DNA of 46,799 nucleotides from a virus. Lineage: Duplodnaviria; Heunggongvirae; Uroviricota; Caudoviricetes. The position numbers and the translations under genes are program-made. Shown in pieces: positions 2,792 through 46,799 of this stretch. The stretch is taken from IMG/VR virus record IMGVR_UViG_2597490154_000003, one strand, 5' to 3'. Within the stretch, counting starts at the first letter, position 1; each line of letters begins with the position of its first letter. The notes beneath the pieces are model-generated. The model was not told the origin of the DNA, searched no databases, and saw nothing but the letters and a program-made list of their open reading frames with translations.

Positions 2792-5700
2792 TCAACTGAT
2801 ACCGGCTGTAGATTTCTTCATCACAACAACAAGAAGGTCGCTGATACTGGTCGTTGGCGTCCAGTTATTAGCACCATATGAAGAAACATTGAAAGTCAGG
2901 GTGACATGGCCGTGTCCGGCAGGCATATCAATGACTGATGAAAATACCCTGCTGACATCCGTCGCGGGTTGCTGAAAGATTTCCTGTCCGTTCTTCAGTA
3001 CCTGCAGCTTACAGGTTGAATACCAGTATGACTGTTGGTTGTTGCTGTTGAAGTTTTCATGCTTACCCCCACGAAACAGAACGGGGGGGACTACTATCTG
3101 ACGGTCAAAAGCCTGGTCATCGTACACAGTGACCGTTATTGTACCGCTGGCATAACTGCCATTTCTCGGAAAGGCTTTTCCCACCGTTTTGACAATATCA
3201 CCTTCAATCTGGTTAGCTGACAGTTTTCCCAGAATCCGACAGTTCTGATTAATCGTGACGTTGTTGAGCGTCCCGGAGTTCGCGTTCACGTTACCGCTGA
3301 TATCCGCATTTTTCGCAGAAAGTCGACCATCAGGTGTCAGTGAAAACGTTGGGGGATTGCCACCGCTGGTAATGGTGGGAGCCGTCAGATATTTCAGGAA
3401 CACTTCGTTCATGAATATCTGATCGCCCTGCCCAACAAACATCGGCTTTGTGTTGCCATTCGCAGGATTAATCATCGCAATCCTGTCCGCCGCCAGCAGC
3501 ACCTGACTCTGCATACCGTCAGGAGTATTCTCAACACCGGCACCAATACCCGCGATATAAAGGCGTCCGTCCTGCATCTGCTGCAGCTTCACAGCCCACA
3601 TGCTGTTCAGGTTATTATTTGTATCAACCTGAACCTTCTGTATCTGCTGGATCGCTGCACTCTGGTCTTCCAGTTTCTTATTGACGGTCTGCGTGATTTC
3701 ATTGCTGACACCCGTAATGGACGTCCTGATTTCAGCCAGGTCAGGCGCAAGCTGACCGTTATCAATCTGCGTCCACAACTCCTGAGCCAGATGGGTTTTC
3801 CCTATCTCTCCTTTGAAAAAATTCAGATAGCCGGATGCATCATCACTCGGCTGGCCAACAGCCTCCACAAATGCCGATTTGCCAACGGTGTTCACACTGC
3901 GGATGTAAAAATAATAATCATGGCCCGGTTTGATATTGATACTGGCGGCTATCCAGTACAGCGCCGTGCCAAGATAGCGTGCTGTGGTTTCAACCTGCCT
4001 GATATCCGCAATCCGCTTTTCCGAGAACCAGAACTCAAACTGTACCGTCGGATCATAAACCGCAAGATGCGGCGTGGCGGTTATCTGAAAATACCCCGGT
4101 GTCAGCTCAATCTGCGACGGCGCTGCCGGTGCGGCAATCCGGAACGATACCGATGCCGGATCGCCCTGCTGCCCCCACGCATTTACCGCCCGGACTGTCA
4201 GCCTGTAGTTCCCCAGCGCCAGTTGCCTGAAGCGGTATGTGGTTTCCGTCGTCCGGGCCGTGCTGACCAGCCGCTCACTGCCGTCATCCGCTGCCACGGT
4301 CAGGCGAAGCATAAAGCTCACCCCCTTCACCACCTTCGGCGTGTCCCAGCGCGCCAGCACCTGATATTCCCCGCTGTCTGCGGTGACTTCGGCAGTCAGG
4401 TGCTGCACCGCTGGCGGCGTGACACCATTCACCGTGCCGCTCTGGTCGCCGTCAAAGTGCGCCCCGTTATCCACGATGGCCTCTTTTTCCGGTACATGCT
4501 GCACGGCAGTGATGGCATACGTGCCGTCATCGTTCTCACGGATACTCACACAGCGGAACAGGCGCTGGCGCAACGTTGGCAACTTCAGCCCCCACACGCT
4601 GTATTCTGCAACGCCGTCAGGAACACGGCTCACTTTTACCTTCACGCCGTCGGTGACGGACTGGACCTCCACGCTGACCGGATTCCCCTGTCCGTCAGCC
4701 AGGCTTATCAGCGTGGTGCCGGAGGATGGCAGCGTGATTTCACGGTCGAGCGTCAGTGTCCGCGTCTGGTTGTTCACCGCCAGCACGCGCCCGCCGATGC
4801 TGATCCCCGCATAGTCATCATCACAGATTTCAATGACATCGCCCGGTACATGGCGAAGCCCTTCTGCACCCACGCTGAAGTCCACGGTCTGCGTTTCCAG
4901 CAGCTCCGTTTTAATCAGCCACAGCCCGGCGCGGTGTGCCTGCCCCCGGCTGGTACAGCCAAAGGCATCCATCTTCGTGACGTTACGACCGTAACGGGCA
5001 ATGGCCTGCGTGTCCTCCACAAGCTCTGTCGCCGTCTCCCAGCCGTTATCCGGGTCAATCCAGTTCACCTCAACGGCATTATGGCGGTCTTTCAGGGCGC
5101 TGAAGCTGTAGCGGAACGGCGCGCCATCATCCGGCATCACCACATTACTGCGGTTATAGGTCCACACCTTATCCGACGGTCGGTCCTGCACGAATGTCAG
5201 CGTCTGCCCGTTCCATACCGGCATACAGCGCATCGCCGAGCAAAAATCACTGAGCACATCCCACGCCTTGCGCTGTGTGGTCAGGTACGCATTACAGGTG
5301 ATGCGCGGCTCCGTGCCGCCAAAGCCGTCCGGCACTGACTGGTCGCAATTCTGGCCGATGACATACAGCGCCCATTTATCCACATCTGCCGCACCAAGAC
5401 GTTTCCCCATGCCGTAGCGCGGATGGGTCAGCATATCCCACAGACACCAGGCCATGTTGTTGCTGTATGCTGGCTTAAACGTTCCGTCCCAGATACCGCT
5501 GTATTGCCGCGTCTGCGGGTTATAGTTCGACGGCACCTGCAGAATGCGCCCGCGAAGATGATAATTACGGCTCACCTGCTGGCTGCCGAACTGCTCCGAG
5601 TCCACCTGTACGCCGACCAGTGCCGTGTTCGGGTAGCACTGTTTCACATCGATGATTTCGGTGTATGACGACCAGAGCGTTTTGTTCTGCAACTGGTCTG

Positions 5701-28586: not shown

Positions 28587-29110
28587 GCAGCCCTCCTGAC
28601 GCCCTGCCCGATCGCCATCAATGCCGCTTTGGATACGGTAGTAAACATCCGTCGAGGACTGATGAACGGTCGCCAAATCAGCAGCATGGAGCCTTTGCTG
28701 TTTCCCTTCTTCTCCAGCCCTGTCGATGGTTCGATAAAATTAATCCGTCCATCAGTGATAATACGAACTTCGTCAACACTCTCCAGAGCCTTGCTGAACC
28801 ATCCGACAGACATATCCTCTGGCACAAGCATCACTACCGTCTGTCGCTGTTGTATACACTGCTCAGCGGCTTTTTCCACCCACGGCCTGATATTGCTGTA
28901 CGGTGGGTTATTCCAGATTGCACCGTGGCTTACCCACTCAGAATTGAGCGCGTCGTCGTCCTCAGTTAGCCAGTGAGCGCACAGAGCATTTTTGTCGCTC
29001 GCTGCCGAATCCAGCCAGAATCCAAACTCAATATCCAGTGCATCAAAAAGCCAAAGCGGCGTTTGCCAGCAGTCCTTGTCGTGTGCTGGCGTATTTGATT
29101 TGATAGTCAT
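28583..29110 (-). CDS. DNA N6-adenine methyltransferase (phage orphan MTase)
   Basis: internal ATG of track ORF; [10 protein letters not shown] and NPPYS (DPPY-class catalytic motif) present; sits between ninB and ninE. Confidence 0.8.
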
Positions 29111-29547
29111 GCAGCCCGATCTCCCCATCGCGCTTTCCATTCGAGAGCCAGTCGCGCTTCGTCTGACCACTTAACGCCACGCTCTGTACCGAATGCCTGT
29201 ATAAGCTCTAATAGCTCCGCAAATTCGCTTACACGCATCCTGCTGGTTGACTGGCCTATTACCACAAAGCCATTCCCGGCAAGGTTAGGAACAACATCCT
29301 GCTGCTTTAATGCTGCGGTAAACACACACTTCCAGCTTTCTGCATCCAGCCAGCGACCATGCCATTCAACCTGACGAGAGACGTCACCTAAGCAGGCCCA
29401 TAGCTTCCTGTTTTGGTCTAAGCTGCGGTTGCGTTCCTGAATGGTTACTACGATTGGTTTGGTTGGGTCTGGAAGGATTTGCTGTACTGCGTGAATAGCG
29501 TTTTGCTGATGTGCCGGAGATCGAATTTCAAAGGTTAGTTTTTTCAT
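29107..29547 (-). CDS. ninB: recombination protein NinB (Orf)
   Basis: from MKKLTFEIRSPAHQQNAIHAVQQILPDPTKPIVVTIQERNRSLDQNRKLWACLGD nearly identical to remembered lambda NinB. Confidence 0.85.
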   Translation of the reverse strand: MKKLTFEIRSPAHQQNAIHAVQQILPDPTKPIVVTIQERNRSLDQNRKLWACLGDVSRQVEWHGRWLDAESWKCVFTAALKQQDVVPNLAGNGFVVIGQSTSRMRVSEFAELLELIQAFGTERGVKWSDEARLALEWKARWGDRAA

Positions 29548-29620
29548 GACTTCCCTCTCCCCCAAATAAAAAGGCCTGCGATTACCTGCAGGCCTGTTAT
29601 TAGCTCAGTGATGTAGATGG

Positions 29621-29911
29621 TCATCTTTTAACTCCATATACCGCCAATATCCGTTTCATCGTGGCACTCTGGCGACACTCCTTAAAAATCAGGTTCGTGC
29701 TCATCTTTCCTTCCCGTTCTTCCTTGGTAGCAAACCGGTAATACACCGTTCGCCAGACCTTACCTTCGATAACCAGAAGACCTGCCCGTGCCATTTTAGC
29801 CGCGGCCTGATTTATGCTGGTTACTGTTGCGCCTGTTAGCGCGGCAACGTCCGGCGCACAGAAGCTATTATGCGTCCCCAGGTAATGAATAATTGCCTCT
29901 TTGCCCGTCAT
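29621..29911 (-). CDS. ren: Ren (Rex exclusion escape)
   Basis: 96 aa MTGKEAIIHYLGTHNSFCAPDVAALTGATVTSINQAAAKMARAG... matches lambda Ren. Confidence 0.85.
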   Translation of the reverse strand: MTGKEAIIHYLGTHNSFCAPDVAALTGATVTSINQAAAKMARAGLLVIEGKVWRTVYYRFATKEEREGKMSTNLIFKECRQSATMKRILAVYGVKR

Positions 29912-30609
29912 ACACTTGCTCCTTTCAGTCCTAACTTAGCTTTAATTTCTGCGATCTTCGCCAGCGCCTGAACACGATTTAGAGGTCTGCCGCCCATGAC
30001 AGGAAGTTGTTTTACTGGTTCAGGTATCGTCTCACCACGGTTAATTCGCGCTGTCATACAGGTCAGTTCATCGGCAGCCTTGCGTCGTAATTCCGCGTCA
30101 GTCAGCGCATTGGCCCGCATGTTCTGGTACAGGTTGGTAACCAGCCAGTAGTGCGCGTTCGATTTCCACGGATAAGACTCTGCATCCGGATACAGGCCTC
30201 GCTTCCGGCAATACTCGTAAACCATATCAACCAGCTCGCTGACGTTTGGCAGTCCGGCGATAACGGATGCTTCTTCCCGGCACCATGCAACAAACTGCCC
30301 GGGTGATGGCAGAAATGGTCGATTCTGCCGACGGGCTACGCGCATTCCTGCGTTAACCTGTTCCATTGTGGTGATCCCGTTTTCCCGGAAAGCCAGAACC
30401 CACTGGCGGCGGATTTCGTTCAGTTCGTTCTGGTCACGGTTAGCCAGACTCGCCGGGAAAGTTGCCAGTAACTGGCTGAACACACCGTTGATGATCTGCG
30501 CTACCTGCTGTACCTGCGGCTTTTCGTCGTACTGTTCCGGCATGTTGTTGGCGATCCGACGCATCTGCTCACGGTCAAAATTAACCATCTGTGCGGCGAT
30601 GTTTTTCAT
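29908..30609 (-). CDS. P: replication protein P (DnaB helicase loader)
   Basis: 233 aa MKNIAAQMVNFDREQMRRIANNMPEQYDEKPQVQQVAQIINGVF... matches lambda P. Confidence 0.9.
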   Translation of the reverse strand: MKNIAAQMVNFDREQMRRIANNMPEQYDEKPQVQQVAQIINGVFSQLLATFPASLANRDQNELNEIRRQWVLAFRENGITTMEQVNAGMRVARRQNRPFLPSPGQFVAWCREEASVIAGLPNVSELVDMVYEYCRKRGLYPDAESYPWKSNAHYWLVTNLYQNMRANALTDAELRRKAADELTCMTARINRGETIPEPVKQLPVMGGRPLNRVQALAKIAEIKAKLGLKGASV

Positions 30610-31505
30610 AAATCCACCCCGTAAATCCAGTCAGTGTTTGTCAGGTCGAGTTTTGGTTTGCAGGCTGTCACACCTGCCTGTTGCTTGTTACGGTTGATTT
30701 CGAGCTGGGTCCACTTGTCGCGGAGTTTGGCCGGGCTCAGCACGTTACCGGACCAGAAGTTGTCCTGGCATGCCCAGCGGAACAGTACACACATGTCGCG
30801 ATGGTTACGTCCGTCACGTTCACGCATCAGGCGGATATCGTTAGCCCACCCTGCAAAATTCGGTTTTCTGGCTGATGGCGCGATGGTCTTCACCATGTCA
30901 AACATCCATTCTGCGGCGGTCAGGTCTTCTGCTGTCCCCCACTTGCTGCCGCTCTGAATTGCAGCATCCGGTTTCACCACAGAAAGGTCGTTTTCTGGCT
31001 GGTCAGAGGATTCGCCAGAATTCTCTGACGAATAATCTTTTCTTTTTTCTTTTGTAATAGTGTCTTTTGTGTCCCCCTGTTTTGAGGGATAGCAATCCCC
31101 CAATTTGAGGGATGTTTTATCCCTCGTTTTAGGGGATTTTCCCTCGTTTTGAGGGATACACCATTCTGAGATGTTTTTATTTGGTCCAAACATGCCGCCT
31201 TGCTGCTTGATAATATTCATTCTGACGAGTTCTAACTTGGCTTCATTGCACCGTTTGACGGGTAACTTTGTAATCTCGCTAAGTTGAGAATCGGTGATTC
31301 TGTCCATTGGTTTATTCCATCCATAGGTTTTACGCAGAATGGCAAGCAGCACTTTAAACTGTCGCTTGGTCAGATCTGCGCCTGAATAAGCCTCAAGCAG
31401 CATATTTGATAGTCTGGCGTAACCATCATCGAGATCTGCCACATTACGCTCCTGTTTGGCAAAGTTACCTCTGCAGAAGTTGAGTATTTTTGCTGTATTT
31501 GTCAT
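30606..31505 (-). CDS. O: replication initiator protein O
   Basis: 299 aa (lambda O 299 aa); contains ori iterons internally; C-terminus DWIYGVDL. Confidence 0.9.
   Translation of the reverse strand: MTNTAKILNFCRGNFAKQERNVADLDDGYARLSNMLLEAYSGADLTKRQFKVLLAILRKTYGWNKPMDRITDSQLSEITKLPVKRCNEAKLELVRMNIIKQQGGMFGPNKNISEWCIPQNEGKSPKTRDKTSLKLGDCYPSKQGDTKDTITKEKRKDYSSENSGESSDQPENDLSVVKPDAAIQSGSKWGTAEDLTAAEWMFDMVKTIAPSARKPNFAGWANDIRLMRERDGRNHRDMCVLFRWACQDNFWSGNVLSPAKLRDKWTQLEINRNKQQAGVTACKPKLDLTNTDWIYGVDL
31029..31160. repeat. ori: ori-lambda: four iterons plus adjacent AT-rich unwinding region, inside O
   Basis: four about 19-bp palindromic repeats (tccccctgttttgagggat, atcccccaatttgagggat, atccctcgttttaggggat, ttccctcgttttgagggata) at 31070-31159 followed by AT-rich tract 31029-31069. 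Confidence 0.8.
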
Positions 31506-31515
31506 AATGACTCCT

Positions 31516-31592
31516 GTGGATTGATCCAGTAATGACCTCAGAATTCCATCTGGATTTGTTCAGAACGCTCGGTTGCCGCCGGGCGTTTTTTA
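31516..31592 (+). ncRNA. oop: OOP antisense RNA (antisense to cII 3-prime end)
   Basis: sequence gattgatccagtaatgacctcagaa..tccatctggatttgttcagaacgctcggttgccgccgggcgttttttatt matches remembered lambda oop RNA and terminator; candidate -10 TCATAAT just upstream. Confidence 0.7.
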
Positions 31593-31834
31593 TTGGTGAG
31601 TCCATCAAGCGCATACTTAAAAGCCCTGCTAATCGGACTGATGTCTGATGCCATTCCGAAAGCACACAAGACCGAAGCAATAAATCTCCAGTCCGTTCTG
31701 CTTATCTTCGATTCATGACAGCCAATCATCTTTGCCAGACCGCGCTGGGTAATAGCTGACAGATTGATAAGTAAATCTGTTTCTGCGCGATCAACGTCAC
31801 GCTGTGATAGTTTGCTGTAACTTGTTCTTTCCAT
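31538..31834 (-). CDS. cII: transcriptional activator CII (mosaic: non-lambda N-terminal part, lambda-like C-terminus)
   Basis: 98 aa; C-terminal TNKKRPAATERSEQIQMEF identical to lambda CII; N-terminal two thirds differ; position downstream of cro. Confidence 0.8.
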   Translation of the reverse strand: MERTSYSKLSQRDVDRAETDLLINLSAITQRGLAKMIGCHESKISRTDWRFIASVLCAFGMASDISPISRAFKYALDGLTNKKRPAATERSEQIQMEF

Positions 31835-31919
31835 TTCTTAAGATTTCCAATAGTGAATAGTTAGTTGAAAGGTATGCGTGGAAACGCATATGGCCTTAGT
31901 TGGTCAGATATCTTGGAAC

Positions 31920-31966
31920 TCGCTTTTCAGCGACGTAGGACGAATGTCCGTTGTTACAAAGAGCGG
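31920..31966 (-). promoter_or_regulatory. nutR candidate (boxA plus boxB)
   Basis: minus strand just downstream of cro: boxA-like CGCTCTTTGTAACAA then, 17 nt later, boxB-like hairpin TCGC-TGAAAA-GCGA (resembles P22 boxB GCGCTGACAAAGCGC). Confidence 0.5.
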
Positions 31967-31975
31967 ATCCGCTTA

Positions 31976-32191
31976 TTAAGCGGCTTTGTGTTCCGGCGGG
32001 AACACGTCATCAAGACTGACTTTTGCGCCTAACTTGTTTAGGCACGCAACAAGAGCACGGCATGTTTTAAGGTCTGGGAAGCGACGACCAGATTCCCAAT
32101 GTCCGATAGCTCCCTGTGTGCATCCAACTGCCTTAGCAAGTGTTGTTTGAGAGATATTCAGTGACTCTCGATATTTTCGTAGGTTGCTCAT
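31976..32191 (-). CDS. cro: Cro repressor (non-lambda immunity type)
   Basis: internal ATG of track ORF gives 71 aa MSNLRKYRESLNISQTTLAKAVGCTQGAIGHWESGRRFP with HTH; GGAGGG RBS; divergent from cI. Confidence 0.8.
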   Translation of the reverse strand: MSNLRKYRESLNISQTTLAKAVGCTQGAIGHWESGRRFPDLKTCRALVACLNKLGAKVSLDDVFPPEHKAA

Positions 32192-32302
32192 ATGCCCTCC
32201 ATAGTAAACACGAATAAAAAAATACAATATGTACTTTGCGAATACAAGTAAAAATACACATTGTGCATGGATGGTTCCAGTACAGAGCGTAATAATAAGG
32301 AC
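32192..32302. promoter_or_regulatory. OR operator region with divergent PR (cro) and PRM (cI) promoters
   Basis: 111-bp AT-rich cro-cI intergenic; repeated ATACAA/TTGTAT half-site-like motifs; candidate PR on minus strand -35 TTGTAT, 17-bp spacer, -10 TATTTT. Confidence 0.55.
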
Positions 32303-32962
32303 ATGAAAATGAAATGGTATGAACTGGCTAGATCCAGAATGAAAGAGCTCGGCATAACTCAAGAGAAGTTAGCCGAAGAGCTAGGTATGACGCAGGGTGG
32401 GATTGGACACTGGTTGCGCGGATCTCGTCATCCATCTCTTAGTGATATTGGTGTGGTGTTTAAATACCTTGGTATTGATAACATATCATTCAACCACGAC
32501 GGGACATTTTCACCTGTTGGCGAATACTCATCGGCCCCAGTTAAAAAACAATATGAGTACCCTGTTTTTTCTCATGTTCAGGCTGGGATGTTCTCTCCAG
32601 AACTCAGAACCTTTACCAAAGGCGATGCGGAGAGATTGGTAAGCACAACCAAAAAAGCCAGTGACTCTGCATTCTGGCTTGAGGTTGAAGGTAACTCAAT
32701 GACCGCACCAACAGGTTCCAAACCCAGCTTTCCTGACGGGATGTTAATTCTGGTTGACCCTGAGCAAGCTGTTGAGCCCGGCGATTTCTGCATAGCCAGA
32801 CTTGGTGGTGATGAATTTACCTTCAAGAAACTGATCAGGGATAGCGGTCAGGTGTTTCTACAGCCACTAAACCCACAATACCCAATGATCCCATGCAATG
32901 AGAGTTGTTCCGTTGTGGGGAAAGTTATCGCCAGCCAATGGCCTGAAGAGACGTTTGGGTGA
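32303..32962 (+). CDS. cI: CI repressor, chimeric (novel N-terminal DNA-binding domain, lambda-like C-terminal domain)
   Basis: ATG at 32303 with TAAGGA RBS; C-terminal about 130 aa ([21 protein letters not shown] ... [16 protein letters not shown]) near-identical to lambda cI; N-terminal HTH region differs and shares TQGxIGHW motif with Cro. Confidence 0.9.
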
Positions 32963-33001
32963 TGAAACCACTTTTATCTACAATTTACAGGGCGGTAAAC
33001 A

Positions 33002-33559
33002 TTGGCAAAAATAGATGATTATCAGCCAAGCCAAGTAGAAGTTGATAAAGTACTTTATTGTAAAAAAATAGTTAACTTTTCTGGCGTTAAATGGAAACAG
33101 AAACCAAGTCGCTCTGATATGTGGCTACAAGCCCATATCATCCCCTTGGATGAGGATTGTATACCTATACAAGGGCTAAAGTTTGAACTGAAATGGAAAC
33201 CAGATCAGGATTCAGAACCTGATGACCCGATTTCTTACCCTAAAATAAATATTATTGCTTTCTATCATAACAAGAGGGTTTTCGCGGTAGATACCTATCA
33301 CTTTGACAAACACACGAATAGTTACAAGGTCGATCATCCGAAGTACCAAGATATCATTTACGGTGCTCACTACCATGTATACTATGAAGAAGCTGGATAC
33401 TATAGTGATAGAATAGCGTTTCCAATCGAAGATGACATAAACCCAGATGACCTGGTAGGGTATTGGAATTACTTCTGTAAACATCTGAACATAACTTACT
33501 CTGGGAGAATACCTTTACCGCTTGAAGATGAGTCGGGGCAAATGGGGTTTGGAATATGA
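33002..33559 (+). CDS. hypothetical protein, rex-locus gene A (unknown function)
   Basis: 185-aa ORF directly downstream of cI, same strand; track start at 33002 is TTG, first in-frame ATG at 33119; AT-rich by eye; stop overlaps start of next gene (ATGA); acidic, Tyr/His-rich. Confidence 0.55.
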   Translation: MAKIDDYQPSQVEVDKVLYCKKIVNFSGVKWKQKPSRSDMWLQAHIIPLDEDCIPIQGLKFELKWKPDQDSEPDDPISYPKINIIAFYHNKRVFAVDTYHFDKHTNSYKVDHPKYQDIIYGAHYHVYYEEAGYYSDRIAFPIEDDINPDDLVGYWNYFCKHLNITYSGRIPLPLEDESGQMGFGI

Positions 33560-34308
33560 TGTGCTCAACAGTGATCTCACAACTAGGTTTCGAATGCCAT
33601 CCAATAGGCAAGACCTTGAGAATTATCAGTCCATTCACTTACTGTGATGATGGAGAGCATGTCGGTGCCTTTATCCGTGAAGTCAATGGTAGGTATTTAG
33701 TTAGTGACAGATGCGATGCCTTAATGAATATGGAGGCAAGAGGGATCTCGCTTACCAAAAAACGACTTGATGAGATACGACAATTACTGCTTAAAGAAGG
33801 CGCAGAACTCAATGCTCGAGGAGAAATCATTGCTTGGGCAACAGAAAAGGATGTCGGTGCGATTACATCGAACATAATTAGAGCTGGTATACTCGCATCA
33901 ACTTTGTCGTTAGACTGGTATCAGCCAGTTCAAGCTGAAAAGTTTGAAAGTATGGTTATTGATTATCTATATCACACAGAGCTTAGAGACGCACTTTCTC
34001 TTCGTGAAAACGTATATGGCTTGAGTGGACATCAAATTACCGTCCCTGTAACAATAAAAACCGACATACCTAAATACGTTTTTACATCAAGCGTGAAACA
34101 CGGAGGAAGCTGGAATAGTGCTTACTCATTGCTTGGGAAACTAATTGATCTTAAAGCTTCAAGTGAGGAGTATAACAACAGATTTGTTGTTATAGACAGC
34201 GAAGCAATTGGTGATCAAATGCAACAACTCTCCTTACTCTTCCATGAATCAAGCCAAGTTCTACCATTCTCCAAAAGAGAGACTTGGGTTAAGAGACTTG
34301 CAGCATAA
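33556..34308 (+). CDS. hypothetical protein, rex-locus gene B (unknown function)
   Basis: 250-aa ORF, ATG at 33556 overlapping gene A stop; AT-rich; no TM segments or nucleotide-binding motifs seen by eye; followed by intrinsic terminator. Confidence 0.6.
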   Translation: MMCSTVISQLGFECHPIGKTLRIISPFTYCDDGEHVGAFIREVNGRYLVSDRCDALMNMEARGISLTKKRLDEIRQLLLKEGAELNARGEIIAWATEKDVGAITSNIIRAGILASTLSLDWYQPVQAEKFESMVIDYLYHTELRDALSLRENVYGLSGHQITVPVTIKTDIPKYVFTSSVKHGGSWNSAYSLLGKLIDLKASSEEYNNRFVVIDSEAIGDQMQQLSLLFHESSQVLPFSKRETWVKRLAA

Positions 34309-34313
34309 TACAA

Positions 34314-34340
34314 CCCGGCCTCAGCGCCGGGTTTTCTTTG
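34314..34340 (+). terminator. rho-independent terminator ending the cI/rex-locus operon
   Basis: hairpin cccggc-ctcagc-gccggg followed by TTTTCTTTG directly after gene B stop. Confidence 0.55.
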
Positions 34341-34517
34341 CCTCACGTTCGCCCACCTAAAAACACATAACCAATTATATTTATTGAAAAATAAATAGAT
34401 GCAACCCACTAAACCACGCAATTCTGATCTCTCCTTACATCGCCGAGGCAATACATCCACGCTAAAAAACAACACTATTAAATACAAAGCGTTATAAAAA
34501 ACCACGCCAACTTACAA

Positions 34518-34562
34518 CAAATTGTATTGATCTTGTAAAGTACATATCGTACTATTTAACCG
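34518..34562 (+). promoter_or_regulatory. PL promoter with OL operator candidate
   Basis: -35 TTGATC (34527-34532), 17-bp spacer, -10 TACTAT (34550-34555); spacer contains AAAGTACATATCGTA, an inverted near-copy of the OR motif AAAGTACATATTGTA. Confidence 0.45.
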
Positions 34563-34601
34563 TCAGCAGGACGCTGGAAGCCAAATGGAACAGACTGGCA
34601 G

Positions 34602-34646
34602 GCTCTTTAAACAACGTCGACTCTCGACTACGTGGCTGAAAAGCCA
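34602..34646 (+). promoter_or_regulatory. nutL candidate (boxA plus boxB)
   Basis: boxA-like GCTCTTTAAACAA (34602-34614) then, 18 nt later, hairpin TGGC-TGAAAA-GCCA (34633-34646); same loop and spacing as the nutR candidate. Confidence 0.5.
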
Positions 34647-34744
34647 GATCACCCAACCACATAAGCTGTGGGATGCAATGCCGAAGCAACCGTCTCAGGA
34701 GGAGCTTCGAGATTGCATCGCCAAAGTTTATTCGGGAGGAATCC

Positions 34745-35017
34745 ATGTCCAGAAAAACAGAATTTAAAGGCACCGCAGCTTCTCGCCGTAGAGCTCGTCG
34801 CGCAAATCTGCAAAGTCAGGAGGCGATCAGCTCCGACAAGCTACACAGGCCAACCCCTTCACGAGTGGTCTTGCAATGCAAGCTCAAACCAGCAATGAGA
34901 GCAGAAGTGATAACTCTGACAACGTTGACCAGAAAATATGAAGGTTCAACTTGTCTTCCGAACGTAGCTCTTTACGCGGCAGGCTACCGGAAATCAAAAC
35001 AACTGACGGCGAGATGA
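34745..35017 (+). CDS. N: antiterminator N (P22 gp24-like)
   Basis: ATG at 34745 with GGAGGA RBS; Arg-rich motif GTAASRRRARRANLQ near N-terminus; C-terminus NVALYAAGYRKSKQLTAR resembles remembered P22 gp24 end. Confidence 0.7.
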   Translation: MSRKTEFKGTAASRRRARRANLQSQEAISSDKLHRPTPSRVVLQCKLKPAMRAEVITLTTLTRKYEGSTCLPNVALYAAGYRKSKQLTAR

Positions 35018-35033
35018 TAAATTCATTTGCTAA

Positions 35034-35615
35034 TTACTTGTTTTTGCCATGCTTATCCTGAGCGATAAGTTCATCCATAAGGCTGTCTGCCTTCCCGGCA
35101 AACCTAATGTAGCACTCATGTCTATAGCTTTCAGGGATAACGAAACGGTCGGTATCAGGATATCCAACAGCAGGAGGCCTTCGAACGAGGAGTCCTTTTT
35201 TGAGCAATGAAATTGATTCATGAGCGCCCTTTTCCGTTTGTAGCTGGTTATTAGCGGCTACAGCGAATGCCAAATACGCTCTTTCTCCAAGAGTTAACGA
35301 ATCAAACAAATCTTGCACATATTTTTCTTCTTTAGATTTGCGCTTCTGAGCAGCGAATACCTCAATTCTTTCAGTCACAGCGTGATAAGCGGAATTAACA
35401 ACGCCGTTAAGCACATAGCTAACGCAAAACAACAGGATGTAATACATCCAGTAATGAGGAAGGATTTCTGGACTATGCAGGTTTATCCATTCTTTTACGC
35501 TTACCGGCATAACAATAATCAATATGATCAGGATGATTAGCATATGAATCAACTGTTTAAGTGTCATTCCTTGCAGGAAAAAATGCATTAGTTCCTGCCA
35601 CCATGAGTTGTTCAT
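35034..35615 (-). CDS. sieB: superinfection exclusion protein SieB-like
   Basis: track ORF runs into IS911; ATG at 35615 gives 193 aa MNNSWWQELMHFFLQGMTLKQLIHMLIILIILIIVMPVSVKEWINL... with N-terminal TM segment, matching remembered lambda SieB. Confidence 0.7.
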   Translation of the reverse strand: MNNSWWQELMHFFLQGMTLKQLIHMLIILIILIIVMPVSVKEWINLHSPEILPHYWMYYILLFCVSYVLNGVVNSAYHAVTERIEVFAAQKRKSKEEKYVQDLFDSLTLGERAYLAFAVAANNQLQTEKGAHESISLLKKGLLVRRPPAVGYPDTDRFVIPESYRHECYIRFAGKADSLMDELIAQDKHGKNK

Positions 35616-35721
35616 CGGCGTTTCTCTTTTGCTCTCTGTAGGGGTGAATTGAAGTGGTTTACTGAATTTGGCCACCTGAACAGAGGTGATATGCTCACCT
35701 CAGAACAACACAGGTGCCATA

Positions 35722-36872
<1,151 letters not shown>

Positions 36873-37014
36873 CTCGGTGGCCAGTTTTTGTTGACCACTT
36901 CAAATAGAGTTTATCCGATTTCTCGTTGTAGGGGTACACGAGAACCACCGAGCCTGATGTGGTTAAAAGACAGGCACAATCTTTACTACCGCAATCCACT
37001 ATTTAAGGTGATAT

Positions 37015-37101
37015 ATGGAAGAAGAATTTGAAGAGTTCGAAGAGCATCCTCAAGATGTGATGGAACAATACCAGGACTATCCGTATGACTACGACTATTG
37101 A
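37015..37101 (+). CDS. small acidic ORF (lambda orf28-like)
   Basis: my own translation: MEEEFEEFEEHPQDVMEQYQDYPYDYDY, 28 aa, RBS AAGGTG; overlaps ral start; below track size cutoff. Confidence 0.4.
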   Translation: MEEEFEEFEEHPQDVMEQYQDYPYDYDY

Positions 37102-37285
37102 TACAAATCAATGGTGTGGACAATTCAAACGATGCAATGGATGCAAGCTGCAATCGGAATGCATGGTTAAGCCTGAAGAAATGTTTCCTGTAATGGAAGA
37201 TGGGAAATATGTCGATAAATGGGCAATACGAACGACGGCAATGATTGCCAGAGAACTTGGTAAACAGAACAACAAAGCTGCCTGA
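37085..37285 (+). CDS. ral: restriction alleviation protein Ral
   Basis: 66 aa MTTTIDTNQWCGQFKRCNGCKLQSECMVKPEEMFPVMEDGKYVDKWAIRTTAMIARELGKQNNKAA matches lambda Ral. Confidence 0.9.
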   Translation: MTTTIDTNQWCGQFKRCNGCKLQSECMVKPEEMFPVMEDGKYVDKWAIRTTAMIARELGKQNNKAA

Positions 37286-37421
37286 TAGTGGCCTTTATTT
37301 TTGGCATAAATAACAGAATAAACACTGCACTGTGTATTCATTCCAACGAGTGAATACACGGAGCAATGTCGCTCGTAACTAAACAGGAGCCGACTTGTTC
37401 TGATTATTGGAAATCTTCTTT

Positions 37422-37448
37422 GCCCTCCAGTGTGAGGGCGATTTTTTA
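37422..37448 (+). terminator. intrinsic terminator within the PL operon (tL-type)
   Basis: hairpin gccctc-cagtgt-gagggc followed by GATTTTTTA between ral and ea10. Confidence 0.45.
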
Positions 37449-37467
37449 TCTATGAGGATATGAATAG

Positions 37468-37836
37468 ATGTCAAACATCAAAAAATACATCATTGATTAC
37501 GACTGGAAAGCATCAATAGAAATTGAAATTGACCATGACGTAATGACAGAGGAAAAACTTCACCAGATTAATAATTTCTGGTCAGACTCTGAATACCGAC
37601 TCAATAAACACGGCTCTGTATTAAATGCTGTATTAATCATGCTGGCGCAACATGCTCTGCTTATAGCAATTTCAAGCGACTTAAATGCATATGGTGTTGT
37701 GTGTGAGTTCGACTGGAATGATGGAAATGGTCAGGAAGGATGGCCTCCAATGGATGGTAGTGAAGGAATAAGAATTACCGATATCGATACATCAGGAATA
37801 TTTGATTCAGATGATATGACTATCAAGGCCGCCTGA
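37468..37836 (+). CDS. ea10: Ea10 (Ssb-like early protein)
   Basis: 122 aa MSNIKKYIIDYDWKASIEIEIDHDVMTEEKLHQINNFWSDSEYRLNKHG... matches lambda Ea10. Confidence 0.85.
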   Translation: MSNIKKYIIDYDWKASIEIEIDHDVMTEEKLHQINNFWSDSEYRLNKHGSVLNAVLIMLAQHALLIAISSDLNAYGVVCEFDWNDGNGQEGWPPMDGSEGIRITDIDTSGIFDSDDMTIKAA

Positions 37837-38562: not shown

Positions 38563-39348
38563 ATGAGTACAGCACTCGCAACGCTGGCAGGGAAGCTGGC
38601 TGAACGTGTCGGCATGGATTCTGTCGACCCACAGGAACTGATCACCACTCTTCGCCAGACGGCATTTAAAGGTGATGCCAGCGATGCGCAGTTCATCGCA
38701 TTGTTGATCGTCGCCAACCAGTACGGCCTTAATCCGTGGACGAAAGAAATTTACGCCTTCCCTGATAAGCAGAACGGCATTGTTCCGGTGGTGGGCGTTG
38801 ATGGCTGGTCCCGCATCATCAATGAAAACCAGCAGTTTGATGGTATGGACTTTGAGCAGGACAATGAATCATGTACATGCCGGATTTACCGCAAAGACCG
38901 CAATCATCCGATCTGCGTTACCGAGTGGATGGATGAATGCCGCCGCGAACCATTCAAAACCCGCGAAGGCAGAGAAATCACGGGGCCGTGGCAGTCGCAT
39001 CCCAAACGGATGTTACGGCATAAAGCCATGATTCAGTGTGCCCGTCTCGCCTTCGGATTTGCTGGTATCTATGACAAGGATGAAGCCGAGCGCATTGTCG
39101 AAAATACCGCATACACTGCAGAACGTCAGCCGGAACGCGACATCACTCCGGTTAACGATGAAACCATGCAGGAGATTAACACTCTGCTGATCGCCCTGGA
39201 TAAAACATGGGATGACGACTTATTGCCGCTCTGTTCCCAGATATTTCGCCGCGACATTCGCGCATCGTCAGAACTGACACAGGCCGAAGCAGTGAAAGCT
39301 CTTGGATTCCTGAAACAGAAAGCCACTGAGCAGAAGGTGGCAGCATGA
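38563..39348 (+). CDS. bet: Bet (Red-beta single-strand annealing protein)
   Basis: 261 aa [66 protein letters not shown]... matches lambda Bet. Confidence 0.95.
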
Positions 39349-40025
39349 CACCGGACATTATCCTGCAGCGTACCGGGATCGACGTGAGAGCTGTCGAACA
39401 GGGGGATGATGCATGGCACAAATTACGGCTCGGCGTCATCACCGCTTCAGAAGTTCACAACGTGATAGCAAAACCCCGCTCCGGAAAGAAATGGCCTGAC
39501 ATGAAAATGTCCTACTTCCACACCCTGCTTGCTGAGGTTTGCACCGGTGTGGCTCCGGAAGTTAACGCTAAGGCGCTGGCTTGGGGAAAACAGTACGAGA
39601 ACGACGCCAGAGCCCTGTTTGAGTTTACTTCCGGCGTGAATGTTACTGAATCCCCGATCATCTATCGCGACGAAAGTATGCGCACCGCCTGCTCTCCCGA
39701 TGGTTTATGCAGTGACGGCAACGGCCTTGAGCTGAAATGCCCGTTTACCTCCCGGGATTTCATGAAGTTCCGGCTCGGTGGTTTCGAGGCCATAAAATCG
39801 GCTTACATGGCCCAGGTGCAGTACAGCATGTGGGTGACGCGAAAAGATGCCTGGTACTTTGCCAACTATGACCCGCGTATGAAGCGTGAAGGACTGCATT
39901 ATGTCGTGGTTGAGCGGGATGAAAAGTACATGGCGAGTTTTGACGAGATGGTGCCGGAGTTCATCGAAAAAATGGACGAGGCACTGGCTGAAATTAGTTT
40001 TGTATTTGGGGAGCAATGGCGATGA
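39345..40025 (+). CDS. exo: Exo (Red-alpha 5-prime to 3-prime exonuclease)
   Basis: 226 aa [65 protein letters not shown]... matches lambda Exo. Confidence 0.95.
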
Positions 40026-40204
40026 CGCATCCTCACGATAATATCCGGGTAGGCGCGATCACTTTCGTCTACTCCGTTACAAAGCGAGGCTGGGTATTTC
40101 CCGGCCTTTCTGTTATCAGAAATCCACTGAAAGCACAGCGGCTGGCTGAGAAGATAAATAATAAACGGGAGGCGGTATGCACAAAGCATCTCCTGTTGAG
40201 TTAA
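40022..40204 (+). CDS. lambda orf60a-like protein
   Basis: track ORF 40016-40204; from [60 protein letters not shown] resembles remembered lambda orf60a. Confidence 0.55.
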
Positions 40205-40351
40205 GAACGAGTATTGAGATGGCACATAGCCTTGCTCAAATTGGAGTCAGGTTTGTGCCAATACCAGTAGAAACAGACGAAGAATTTCATACGTTAGCCA
40301 CATCCCTTTCACAAAAGCTGGAAATGATGGTGGCGAAAGCAGAAGCAGATG
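40177..40351 (+). pseudogene. lambda orf63-like gene truncated by IS911 insertion (last 7 codons displaced to 41602-41621)
   Basis: [58 protein letters not shown] then IS911 end; removing the IS and one ATG copy restores ...AEADERDQV-stop. Confidence 0.6.
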
Positions 40352-40381
40352 TGAAGTGGTCAACAAAAACTGGCCACCGAG

Positions 40382-41529
<1,148 letters not shown>

Positions 41530-45430: not shown

Positions 45431-45667
45431 ATGTCTCGACTAATCACTTTACAGGACTGGGCTAAAGAAGAATTTGGGGACTTAGCACCAAGTGAGCGAG
45501 TTCTGAAAAAATACGCGCAAGGGAAAATGATGGCCCCACCCGCTATAAAAGTTGGTCGCTACTGGATGATTGACCGAAATTCCCGTTTTGTAGGAACGCT
45601 TGCAGAACCGCAACTCCCAATAAACGCAAACCCAAAACTCCAACGGATAATCGCTGATGGCTGCTAG
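45431..45667 (+). CDS. xis: excisionase-like protein
   Basis: 78 aa directly upstream of and overlapping int; strong RBS AAGAGGAGGA; basic protein; assignment mainly by position and size. Confidence 0.6.
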   Translation: MSRLITLQDWAKEEFGDLAPSERVLKKYAQGKMMAPPAIKVGRYWMIDRNSRFVGTLAEPQLPINANPKLQRIIADGC

Positions 45668-46799
45668 ACCCCGATCTCACAAAATCTCTATACCCAATTT
45701 ATATTGCAAATTAGATAAGCGAACCGGAAAGGTATATTGGCAATACAAACATCCACTATCCGGTCGTTTTCATAGCTTAGGAACTGATGAGAATGAAGCA
45801 AAACAAGTTGCTACTGAAGCAAATACCATTATTGCTGAACAACGTACCCGACAAATATTAAGCGTCAATGAGCGTCTAGAAAGAATGAAAGGCAGGCGCT
45901 CAGACATTACGGTGACAGAATGGCTTGATAAATATATTTCTATCCAGGAGGACAGGCTGCAACATAATGAACTAAGACCCAACTCCTATCGGCAAAAAGG
46001 CAAACCCATTCGTCTTTTCCGTGAGCATTGTGGAATGCAACACCTCAAGGATATTACCGCACTTGATATTGCCGAAATAATTGATGCTGTAAAGGCTGAA
46101 GGTCATAACAGGATGGCGCAAGTCGTGAGAATGGTGTTGATCGACGTCTTCAAAGAAGCACAACACGCAGGACATGTTCCGCCAGGATTTAACCCAGCGC
46201 AGGCAACAAAACAACCGCGAAATCGAGTAAACCGCCAAAGATTATCACTGCCCGAATGGCAGGCAATATTTGACAGCGTAAGCAGACGGCAGCCCTATTT
46301 AAAATGCGGGATGCTACTTGCTCTTGTCACTGGACAACGTTTAGGCGATATCTGCAATTTGAAATTCTCTGATATCTGGGACGACATGTTGCACATTACT
46401 CAGGAAAAAACCGGTTCAAAACTTGCTATTCCGCTTAACCTGAAATGCGATGCTCTGAATATTACCCTTCGTGAAGTTATATCTCAGTGCAGGGATGCTG
46501 TTGTTAGTAAATATCTGGTCCATTACCGTCACACTACCTCTCAAGCAAACAGAGGAGACCAGGTGTCTGCAAATACTCTTACAACGGCTTTTAAAAAGGC
46601 CAGGGAAAAATGTGGCATAAAATGGGAGCCAGGAACTGCGCCCACATTTCATGAGCAGCGATCTCTGTCAGAACGGTTATATCGGGAACAGGGTCTGGAT
46701 ACGCAAAAGTTGTTAGGTCATAAATCCAGAAAAATGACCGACCGATACAATGATGATCGTGGTAAAGACTGGATTATCGTAGATATCAAAACAGCATAG
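45657..46799 (+). CDS. int: tyrosine site-specific integrase
   Basis: 380 aa; conserved block LALVTGQRLGDI, HEQRSLSERLY and LGHKSRKMTDRYNDDRG (tyrosine recombinase R..H..R..Y region); stop at window end. Confidence 0.9.
   Translation: MAARPRSHKISIPNLYCKLDKRTGKVYWQYKHPLSGRFHSLGTDENEAKQVATEANTIIAEQRTRQILSVNERLERMKGRRSDITVTEWLDKYISIQEDRLQHNELRPNSYRQKGKPIRLFREHCGMQHLKDITALDIAEIIDAVKAEGHNRMAQVVRMVLIDVFKEAQHAGHVPPGFNPAQATKQPRNRVNRQRLSLPEWQAIFDSVSRRQPYLKCGMLLALVTGQRLGDICNLKFSDIWDDMLHITQEKTGSKLAIPLNLKCDALNITLREVISQCRDAVVSKYLVHYRHTTSQANRGDQVSANTLTTAFKKAREKCGIKWEPGTAPTFHEQRSLSERLYREQGLDTQKLLGHKSRKMTDRYNDDRGKDWIIVDIKTA

Follow-up and report, generated by a model that had tools for sequence, protein, structure and literature searches.

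The lysis/lysogeny switch of a lambda-related Escherichia coli prophage is a lambdoid mosaic, very probably of an immunity type already recorded in Stx phages

The cII-cro-OR-cI region of a lambda-related prophage raised the question of whether DNA-binding parts foreign to lambda, joined to lambda-like C-terminal parts, had produced a new immunity specificity on a lambda scaffold, as an earlier note on this DNA had proposed, or whether the combination was already known. The interval examined (positions 31538-32962, 1425 bp) lies in a stretch of 46,799 nt from IMG/VR record IMGVR_UViG_2597490154_000003 (Caudoviricetes), and this whole stretch is called the window here. Judged from its genes, sites and sequence identities, the interval is very probably the lysis/lysogeny switch carried by an E. 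coli prophage related to lambda, with an immunity type that has already been recorded in Stx phages. The switch proteins belonged to PHROG families 4, 3 and 191, and their PDB matches included lambda repressor and lambda cII.

The open reading frame of cI opened at 32261 and ended at 32962 on the plus strand, and the likely start codon was the ATG at 32303, which would give a protein of 219 aa. The N-terminal DNA-binding domain (aa 1-83, 32303-32551, plus strand) matched Pfam HTH_3 (E = 2e-10), and the match spanned aa 11-58 (E = 1.9e-10) and exceeded the Pfam cut-off. This domain was 100% identical in 56 phage records, and its next relatives, at 52%, were from Salmonella phages. The claim that it was unrelated to the lambda domain held for the DNA, where no homology was found, but not for the protein, because both domains were HTH_3 domains with about 23% amino acid identity, and phmmer aligned residues 11-219 with the full-length lambda repressor 3bdn. 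The two N-terminal domains are unrelated at the DNA level only. The linker and C-terminal domain (aa 84-219, 32552-32962, plus strand) were of the lambda type, with a Pfam match to Peptidase_S24 at aa 87-209 (E = 1e-28) and PDB matches to 3bdn, 1f39, and 2ho0. As the earlier note had stated, this part was nearly identical to that of lambda (135 of 136 residues), and the sole change replaced W129 of lambda with L. At the codon level, 26 synonymous differences and 1 non-synonymous difference were found (dN 0.003, dS 0.37). The predicted cleavage site (A94-G95) and the predicted catalytic pair (S132/K175) aligned with A111-G112, S149, and K192 of lambda. With a C-terminal module 99% identical to that of lambda, the repressor would be expected to undergo RecA-stimulated autocleavage and to allow prophage induction. 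The database annotation of cI starts at the ATG at 32267 (231 aa) rather than at 32303; lying 36 nt upstream, inside OR2/OR3, the annotated start is probably misplaced.

The cro gene (31976-32191, minus strand) encoded a protein of 71 aa that matched Pfam HTH_3 (E = 4e-12). Its Pfam matches were to HTH_3, HTH_31, and HTH_19 only, which left it outside the lambda Cro family, and no meaningful alignment with lambda Cro was obtained. The PDB matches of Cro were to repressor-like HTH proteins. Over 62 aa, 35% of the residues were identical between the N-terminal domain of cI and the Cro of the same phage (E = 9e-13). The motif TQG(G/A)IGHW was present in both proteins at the predicted recognition helix, which bore out the shared motif already noticed in the sequence.

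The operator core had the form TACA-N3-YGTA, with three cores at OR and three at OL, and the only three exact matches to this pattern in the 46.8-kb window all fell within the OR and OL clusters. The alternative pattern TACA-N4-TGTA gave zero sites in OR or OL and showed no enrichment, so the spacing is N3. The OR1 core TACAATATGTA (32223-32233) was an exact match, and in AP005153, the record of a Stx1-converting phage, the core forms the center of an annotated 17-bp operator; it lay in the spacer of the putative PR on the minus strand (-35 TTGTAT, 32242-32247; -10 TATTTT, 32219-32224). The OR2 core TACACATTGTG (32255-32265) was assigned from the motif and the AP005153 annotation, and its center would lie about 43 bp upstream of the ATG at 32303, a position comparable to that of lambda OR2 with respect to PRM. 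The OR3 core TACAGAGCGTA (32281-32291) overlapped the -10 of the putative PRM (TAATAA, 32290-32295). The OL3 (34483-34493), OL2 (34516-34526), and OL1 (34541-34551) cores were located inside operators annotated in AP005153, and a putative PL (TTGATC, 34527-34532; TACTAT, 34550-34555) would read toward N, with PL annotated at its counterpart in AP005153. These operator and promoter assignments draw on the position of the motif and on the "putative" annotation of that other record. The OR cores were spaced by 32 and 26 bp, compared with 24 and 23 bp in lambda; lambda-like pairwise cooperativity at OR is assumed here, since the spacings differ from those of lambda.

The genes flanking the operators were of mixed type. 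The N gene (34745-35017) gave a Pfam match to the N peptide (E = 1.5e-32). A nutR-like region (31920-31965, minus strand), with boxA CGCTCTTTG at 31957-31965 and a boxB hairpin TCGCTGAAAAGCGA at 31920-31933, was read from the sequence, and segment 31400-31966 showed 91% identity with 933W, whose nutR is annotated. Downstream of cI, the rexA/rexB slot was occupied by two overlapping open reading frames (185 and 250 aa, 33002-34308, plus strand) with Pfam matches to DUF6978 (weak) and DUF1828, PADLOC assignments PDC-M24A/B, and PHROG families 2017 and 1960. A terminator followed them at 34312-34333, within a short segment that shared 90% identity with the DNA located immediately after rexB in lambda.

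The cII gene (31538-31834, minus strand) matched Pfam Phage_CII (PF05269) over its full length (E = 7e-34); aa 1-92 aligned to profile positions 1-91, and lambda cII (PDB 1xwr) was matched with E = 9e-10. The body of cII, which includes the HTH (codons 1-78, 31601-31834, minus strand), differed from lambda cII (43% amino acid identity), as had been proposed, but it was not novel: its identity with the cII of HK022, phage 21, 933W, and Min27 was 83-96%, and it was of the HK022/21/933W type. The tail (codons 79-98 and the stop, 31538-31600, minus strand) formed the left end of the lambda-like replication block. Its sequence LTNKKRPAATERSEQIQMEF was identical to lambda in 20 of 20 residues and 62 of 63 nt, the lone base change being synonymous, and it overlapped oop just as the earlier note had described. 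The oop antisense RNA gene (31516-31592, plus strand) covered the last ~18 cII codons, contained a terminator stem at 31562-31589, and was identical to lambda oop (complement of 38599-38675) at 74 of 77 positions. The promoter scan gave a Po-like promoter upstream (31480-31508, plus strand; TTGAGT-17-CATAAT, with TG), and the colinear 97% alignment put it at the position of lambda Po. An Rfam scan of 29000-37500 with E values up to 1 returned three chance-level matches and no oop or nut family; Rfam holds no oop model to match against. The overlap of cII and oop is conserved across lambdoid phages, including Stx1 and Stx2 II, and cII remains active without its last 17 aa, although OOP regulation depends on them (PMC3349717). 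A candidate cII box of PRE, TTGCTGTAACTTGT (31812-31825, plus strand), was located inside the 5' end of cII and directed toward cro and cI. It fits TTGC-N6-TTGY, a pattern whose count in the window was not above chance, and its candidate assignment draws on a position equivalent to that of lambda PRE. The same TTGC-N6-TTGY scan gave no convincing candidates for the PI and PaQ sites. cII is not an immunity determinant.

Alignment with lambda by blastn located the mosaic joints directly. Window positions 29107/29191-31600 corresponded to lambda 38591-41084 (~97%), and 32552-32963 corresponded to lambda 37226-37637 (93.4%), with no DNA homology to lambda detectable in 31601-32551. The joints lay inside both cI and cII, as had been predicted. 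At 32551/32552, lambda homology resumed at cI codon 84, in the inter-domain linker; at 31600/31601, it ended at cII codon 78/79, 8 nt past the oop terminator, at the 3' end of oop. Each joint sits at the start of a functionally separate part, namely the cleavage and oligomerization module of cI and the oop-overlapping tail of cII, and the arrangement is clean textbook lambdoid mosaicism. By its sequence affinities, the block between the joints is itself composite: nutR and the cII body were common to 933W, HK022, and phage 21, and the part from cro through OR to the N-terminal portion of cI was specific to the immunity type. The synonymous divergence from lambda was 0.37 for the C-terminal part of cI, compared with 0.08 for O and 0.16 for P. 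Separate exchange events are therefore indicated rather than a single lambda scaffold, and only 53% of the window DNA could be aligned to lambda.

The proposal that cI, Cro, and cII carry novel DNA-binding parts, fused onto lambda C-terminal parts to give a new immunity specificity on a lambda scaffold, now appears very improbable. The phage is mosaic relative to lambda exactly where the proposal placed the joints, and its N-terminal domain, Cro, and operators are not those of lambda. However, both cI and Cro were 100% identical to the proteins of AP005153, all six operator cores were identical, and the region was present in 631 of 5426 genomes; the cII body was of the HK022/21/933W type in a protein that does not set immunity, and the lambda-like segments, which make up the 53%, had diverged unequally at synonymous sites. 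Within cI, the absence of recombination, with an N-terminal domain that merely evolved much faster from a common lambda-like ancestor, is scarcely credible. Repressor DNA-binding domains do diverge faster, and the homologue in Salmonella phage g341c showed 54% N-terminal and 80% C-terminal identity, but in the window the DNA passed in a one-codon step from no detectable similarity to 93.4%, and the N-terminal domains shared 23% of their residues while the synonymous sites of the C-terminal part (dS 0.37) were far from saturated. The domain trees were also incongruent, with the window next to lambda, then g341c, and apart from TL-2011c in the C-terminal tree, but next to g341c in the N-terminal tree, where lambda grouped with TL-2011c. 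These observations point to recombination, not rate variation, in cI. An origin as a laboratory hybrid or assembly chimera has a practically negligible probability: the cII architecture resembles that of the laboratory hybrid lambda h434 imm21, but an identical 1.4-1.7 kb was found in the independent isolates ev207, ev017, PhiR57_1, and PhiR63_2, and many complete chromosomes, ATCC 11775 and BEN2908 among them, also contained this DNA.

The exchange in cI may also have run opposite to the direction that the earlier note implied. The lambda-type C-terminal module may be native to the lineage of the Stx1 phage and g341c, so that lambda cI would be the chimera, with a TL-2011c-like N-terminal domain, and we give this an even chance. 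The C-terminal parts of lambda and the window were 80-81% identical to that of g341c, whose N-terminal domain is of the window type (54%), and only 64-65% identical to that of TL-2011c, whose N-terminal domain is of the lambda type (59%). The phage collection contained 98 records whose C-terminal part reached at least 95% identity, a number equal to the 62 records with a window-type N-terminal domain plus the 36 with a lambda-type one. However, this comparison covered four taxa with trees that had no outgroup rooting, and rate differences or further exchanges, for example if g341c were itself recombinant, could give the same pattern. If lambda cI were chimeric, as the domain identities hint, the paradigm repressor would itself be recombinant.

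In the preferred reading, that of a recorded immunity type, the switch would work as follows. The cI protein, with its HTH_3 and self-cleaving S24 domains, would bind the six TACA-N3-YGTA operators, three in the interval that separates cI from cro and the other three upstream of N, and would thereby shut PR and PL and autoregulate PRM. Cro, with the same HTH family and recognition-helix motif, would bind the six cI operators. The cII protein would activate PRE at the TTGC-N6-TTGT box within its own 5' end, and the oop antisense RNA that overlaps the cII tail would oppose it. Given the 99% identity of the linker and C-terminal domain to their lambda counterparts, the repressor is expected to dimerize, act cooperatively, form loops, and undergo RecA-stimulated cleavage as lambda cI does. 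Heteroimmunity to lambda is to be expected, since cI, Cro, and the operators form a set unlike that of lambda. In double lysogens, the 99% identical dimerization, cooperativity, and cleavage module might allow lambda cI and this cI to form mixed dimers or oligomers that couple or destabilize both switches, which we regard as doubtful. If it were true, the mixed oligomers would lead to dominant-negative "poisoning" or co-induction, and to incompatibility between formally heteroimmune prophages.

The immunity type was common. Of 5426 complete E. coli genomes, 631 (about 1 in 9) covered the 1425-bp interval to at least 80%; the interval was 100% identical in the E. coli type strain, and the ATCC 11775 and BEN2908 chromosomes were among the carriers. 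At least 80% query coverage was also found in 56 phage records, and the region occurred in many Stx2a phages, in ev207 and ev017, and in PhiR phages. The carriers of the immunity type included the Stx1 converting phage and Stx2 II (O157:H7 Morioka V526), 1717, YYZ-2008, the PA series, and the gut coliphages ev207, ev017, and PhiR57_1. The RefSeq record of ev207 has no cro annotation. The records AP005153 (Stx1 converting phage, deposited in 2003) and AP005154 (Stx2 II) are reportedly from Sato et al. 2003. In the literature covered, to which that paper did not belong, this cI chimera was not explicitly described, and where the CI proteins of Stx phages were sorted into clades, the lambda-like C-terminal domain was not discussed (PMC8951638). 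Since cI and Cro equal the AP005153 proteins, the operators are the same, and the region is present in 631 of 5426 E. coli genomes, the switch is a known, ordinary lambdoid mosaic with no novel part. The interval has little discovery value and limited practical value; this immunity type is shared between O157:H7 Stx phages and common prophages of commensal and ExPEC strains, a link that bears on mutual superinfection immunity.

Compared with AP005153, the 219-aa cI counted from the M at 32303 and the 71-aa Cro were 100% identical proteins, and the six 11-bp operator cores were identical and located inside the annotated operators, with four differences in the OR region outside the cores. The order OL - cI - OR - cro - nutR - cII was the same. 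The DNA was 96.7% identical over 31498-32960 and 98.5-99.6% identical across cro and cI (99.6% in the N-terminal and 98.5% in the C-terminal part of cI), so the whole of cI was of one known type, and no breakpoint was found in it relative to this record. The Stx phages of the AP005153 type departed from the phage studied here in several places: their cII tail and oop were of the HK022 type, with 74.6% identity in that part; cII codons 1-27 contained a cluster of differences; O was HK022-like; and P and the genes in the rex slot were not the same. Phages ev207 and ev017 and the PhiR phages were 100% identical over 31400-33100. Lambda was similar in O and P (~97%), in the three OR and three OL sites, and in the divergent PR and PRM, but differed in the sequence and spacing of the operators and in the type of N and nut, and its rexAB are replaced in the phage studied here. 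The lambda N-terminal domain, Cro, and 17-bp operators, by which imm-lambda is recognized, were not those of this phage. The cII of phage 21, seen through lambda h434 imm21 (OM418627), had a body of the HK022 type and a tail and oop like those of lambda, with 88% amino acid identity overall; at cII/oop this hybrid carries phage 21's own sequence, in which cII differs to the left of oop (PMC3349717). The phage 21 tail had five base changes and a small insertion (KKKRPVCKTERSEQIQMEF), and its cI, Cro, and operators differed. The Salmonella P22-like phages g341c and epsilon34 had a full-length C1 homologue (54% in the N-terminal and 80% in the C-terminal part), a Cro with 45% identity, the same TACA-N3-YGTA core at annotated repressor-binding sites, and a lambda-type cII tail and oop, but their recognition helix (TKGAVSHWLNG) was unlike that of this phage, and the cII body, replication genes, and host genus were different. 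Engineered hybrid repressors with the lambda C-terminal domain and heterologous DNA-binding domains were reportedly made in the Hochschild and Ptashne laboratories. These laboratory constructs had the same linker join to the lambda oligomerization and cleavage domain, which in the present cI is natural and widespread.

The window was a lambda-related prophage in reverse prophage order, running from tail through head, lysis, replication and immunity genes to the integrase gene at the end, and lambda DNA could be aligned to about 53% of it. The final position of the window coincided with the stop codon of a 380-aa ORF (45657-46799) at the integrase gene position, and its first lay within tail-fibre genes, which suggests a prophage sequence cut at predicted boundaries. 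In the immunity region, cII (98 aa, 31538..31834) and cro (71 aa, 31976..32191) lay on the minus strand and cI, ending at 32962, on the plus strand. On the left were lambda-like genes for O (30606..31505) and P. On the right, two non-rex ORFs (33002..34308, plus strand) came first, and OL/PL and an N gene (34745..35017) lay beyond them. Pfam analysis revealed HTH_3 and Peptidase_S24 domains in cI, HTH_3 in Cro, and Phage_CII across the entire length of cII. None of the examined parts of the window showed sitABCD, which the close relative ev207 carries as cargo.

Comparison with lambda by blastn showed two homologous blocks, 29107..31600 (97%) and 32552..32963 (93.4%), with no similarity detectable between them (31601 to 32551), and the breakpoints relative to lambda fell inside both cII and cI, as the earlier note had proposed. 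The step in cI was located at codon 84 in the inter-domain linker, 10 residues before the Ala-Gly self-cleavage site. From this codon onward, the protein matched lambda at 135 of 136 residues, as expected from the near-identity first noticed, and the codon differences were 26 synonymous and one non-synonymous (dN 0.003, dS 0.37). Rate variation alone was ruled out for cI, because DNA identity rose in one step from undetectable to 93% at such a dS. The N-terminal domain, previously called unrelated to that of lambda, was in fact a distant homologue of the same Pfam family with 23% identity. The likeness of this domain to Cro was borne out by 35% identity across 62 residues (E = 9e-13), with TQG(G/A)IGHW common to both at the helix 3 position defined by HTH_3 and lambda repressor. 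Identities of the N-terminal part and of the linker plus C-terminal part were, respectively, 23% and 99% for the window and lambda, 54% and 80% for the window and Salmonella phage g341c, 20.5% and 81% for lambda and g341c, and 59% and 65% for lambda and TL-2011c. In the trees of these four taxa, lambda grouped with the window and g341c lineage by the C-terminal part and with TL-2011c by the N-terminal part. Among phage-collection records, 98 had a cI C-terminal part at least 95% identical, a number equal to the 62 records with the window-type N-terminal domain plus the 36 with the lambda type. The simplest reading of the four taxa, only suggestive, is that the C-terminal module may be native to the window/g341c lineage and lambda cI may be the chimera. 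Judged by sequence divergence, the lambda-like pieces differ in age and do not form the single lambda scaffold previously envisaged, because dS was 0.37 in the cI C-terminal part, 0.08 in O and 0.16 in P.

In cII, the step to lambda homology was found at codon 78/79. The final 20 residues were those of lambda, with DNA differing by one synonymous base, and the tail overlapped a copy of oop on the plus strand (31516..31592), which matched lambda oop at 74 of 77 positions and had a Po-like promoter and a terminator; lambda homology stopped 8 nt past the oop end. The cII body (codons 1-78) did differ from lambda but was not novel, showing 83-96% protein identity to cII of HK022, 933W, phage 21, Min27 and many others. 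A different but homologous tail, EITKKKSPAATEDFKQIDMQF, was present in cII of HK022, 933W and the Stx1-converting phage (AP005153), and the lambda-type tail in the window and phage 21. The recombination joint within cII is real, because identity to the Stx1 phage, which has the same immunity type, switched at 31600-31602, with only 74.6% in the tail and 94-99.6% elsewhere. Additionally, codons 1-27 (31753-31828) contained 12 differences from this phage in 76 bp around the candidate PRE box, the remaining body being nearly identical, which looks like an additional small mosaic patch. Lambdoid phages, among them Stx1 and Stx2 II, share a conserved cII/oop overlap, phage 21 differs in sequence left of oop, and cII retains activity without its last 17 residues, which are needed for OOP regulation (Hayes et al., PMC3349717). 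The lambda-type tail and oop also occurred in g341c beside an unrelated cII body; therefore, the cII joint is the boundary of two functional units and a recurrent exchange point.

Across the 46.8 kb, the motif TACA-N3-YGTA was matched exactly only three times, each time within one of two clusters of three sites, with cores at 32223, 32255 and 32281 (OR, between cI and cro) and at 34483, 34516 and 34541 (OL, upstream of N). In AP005153, six 17-bp sites are annotated as "putative operators", and each was centred on one of these same six cores. PR was predicted as TTGTAT-17-TATTTT with OR1 inside the spacer, and PL as TTGATC-17-TACTAT with OL1 over the -10. A TAATAA -10 was placed 7 nt ahead of ATG 32303, so the cI mRNA may be leaderless like that of lambda. 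The public records AP005153, PhiR57_1 and ev207 start cI at ATG 32267 (231 aa). We favour ATG 32303 (or 32309) as the probable start, since ATG 32267 would place OR2 and OR3 within the coding sequence; the operator/PRM layout and conservation with g341c (MKM(K/N)WY...) gave further support. A candidate cII box, TTGCTGTAACTTGT, was located at 31812..31825 in the lambda-PRE-equivalent position, its pattern not being enriched in the window. In g341c, the annotated repressor-binding sites (2421-2431, 2480-2490 and 4374-4384 of that record) had the same TACA-N3-YGTA core, although the N-terminal domains were only 54% identical, and the motif was enriched (21 matches versus 5.8 expected). It is conceivable that the two immunity types recognise each other's sites in part.

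The sequence directly showed the domain families, the residues for catalysis and cleavage, the junctions, and the motif and layout of the operators, and we infer the regulatory steps. cI would repress PR and PL via the six sites and autoregulate PRM, and Cro would compete for the same sites. Induction would proceed by RecA-stimulated cI cleavage at A94-G95, and cII, counteracted by oop, would activate PRE. Since it shares the lambda module, cI would oligomerise as lambda cI does; however, the OR spacings of 32 and 26 bp are unlike those of lambda, so cooperativity may differ in its details.

The rexA/rexB slot directly downstream of cI was occupied by two overlapping ORFs of 185 and 250 aa (33002-34308, plus strand). 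These matched two PHROGs of unknown function (2017 and 1960) and, in Pfam, DUF1828 and, weakly, DUF6978. PADLOC assigned them to a candidate defence system, with hits to PDC-M24A (E = 5e-4) and PDC-M24B (E = 5e-10). A terminator followed at 34312-34333, within a short segment that shares 90% identity with the DNA immediately after lambda rexB. The two ORFs could form a cassette for defence or exclusion that is expressed in the lysogen.

The new immunity specificity claimed earlier did not hold. AP005153 encodes a cI (219 aa) and a Cro that were 100% identical in protein to those of the window, with DNA identities of 98.6% for cro, 99.6% and 98.5% for the N- and C-terminal parts of cI, and 96.4% for the OR region, where no difference fell within an operator core. 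A stretch of 1701 bases around the interval was 100% identical in phages ev207, ev017, PhiR57_1 and PhiR63_2 and about 97% identical in the Stx1-converting phage, in Stx2 II and in an extensive series of Stx2a phages. Of 5426 complete E. coli genomes, 631 covered at least 80% of the 1425-bp interval, and identity reached 100% in APEC strain BEN2908 and in ATCC 11775, the type strain. The LF82 prophage Perceval has been described as a close ev207 relative. In the ev207 RefSeq record (NC_049949), the cro CDS is unannotated between cI and cII (37173-37606), where the DNA is identical to the window cro. The best solved relative of Cro, PDB 28tn_A (an 82-aa "lambda repressor-like protein", E = 4.5e-17, aligned residues 1-69), may show the structure of a closely related Cro or repressor. 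The sequence observations of the earlier note were confirmed and its interpretation was supported in part: there are mosaic joints when lambda is the reference, but this is an immunity type already known and very common, a textbook lambdoid mosaic, and classical phage 21 has the same cII architecture of body and lambda-type tail.
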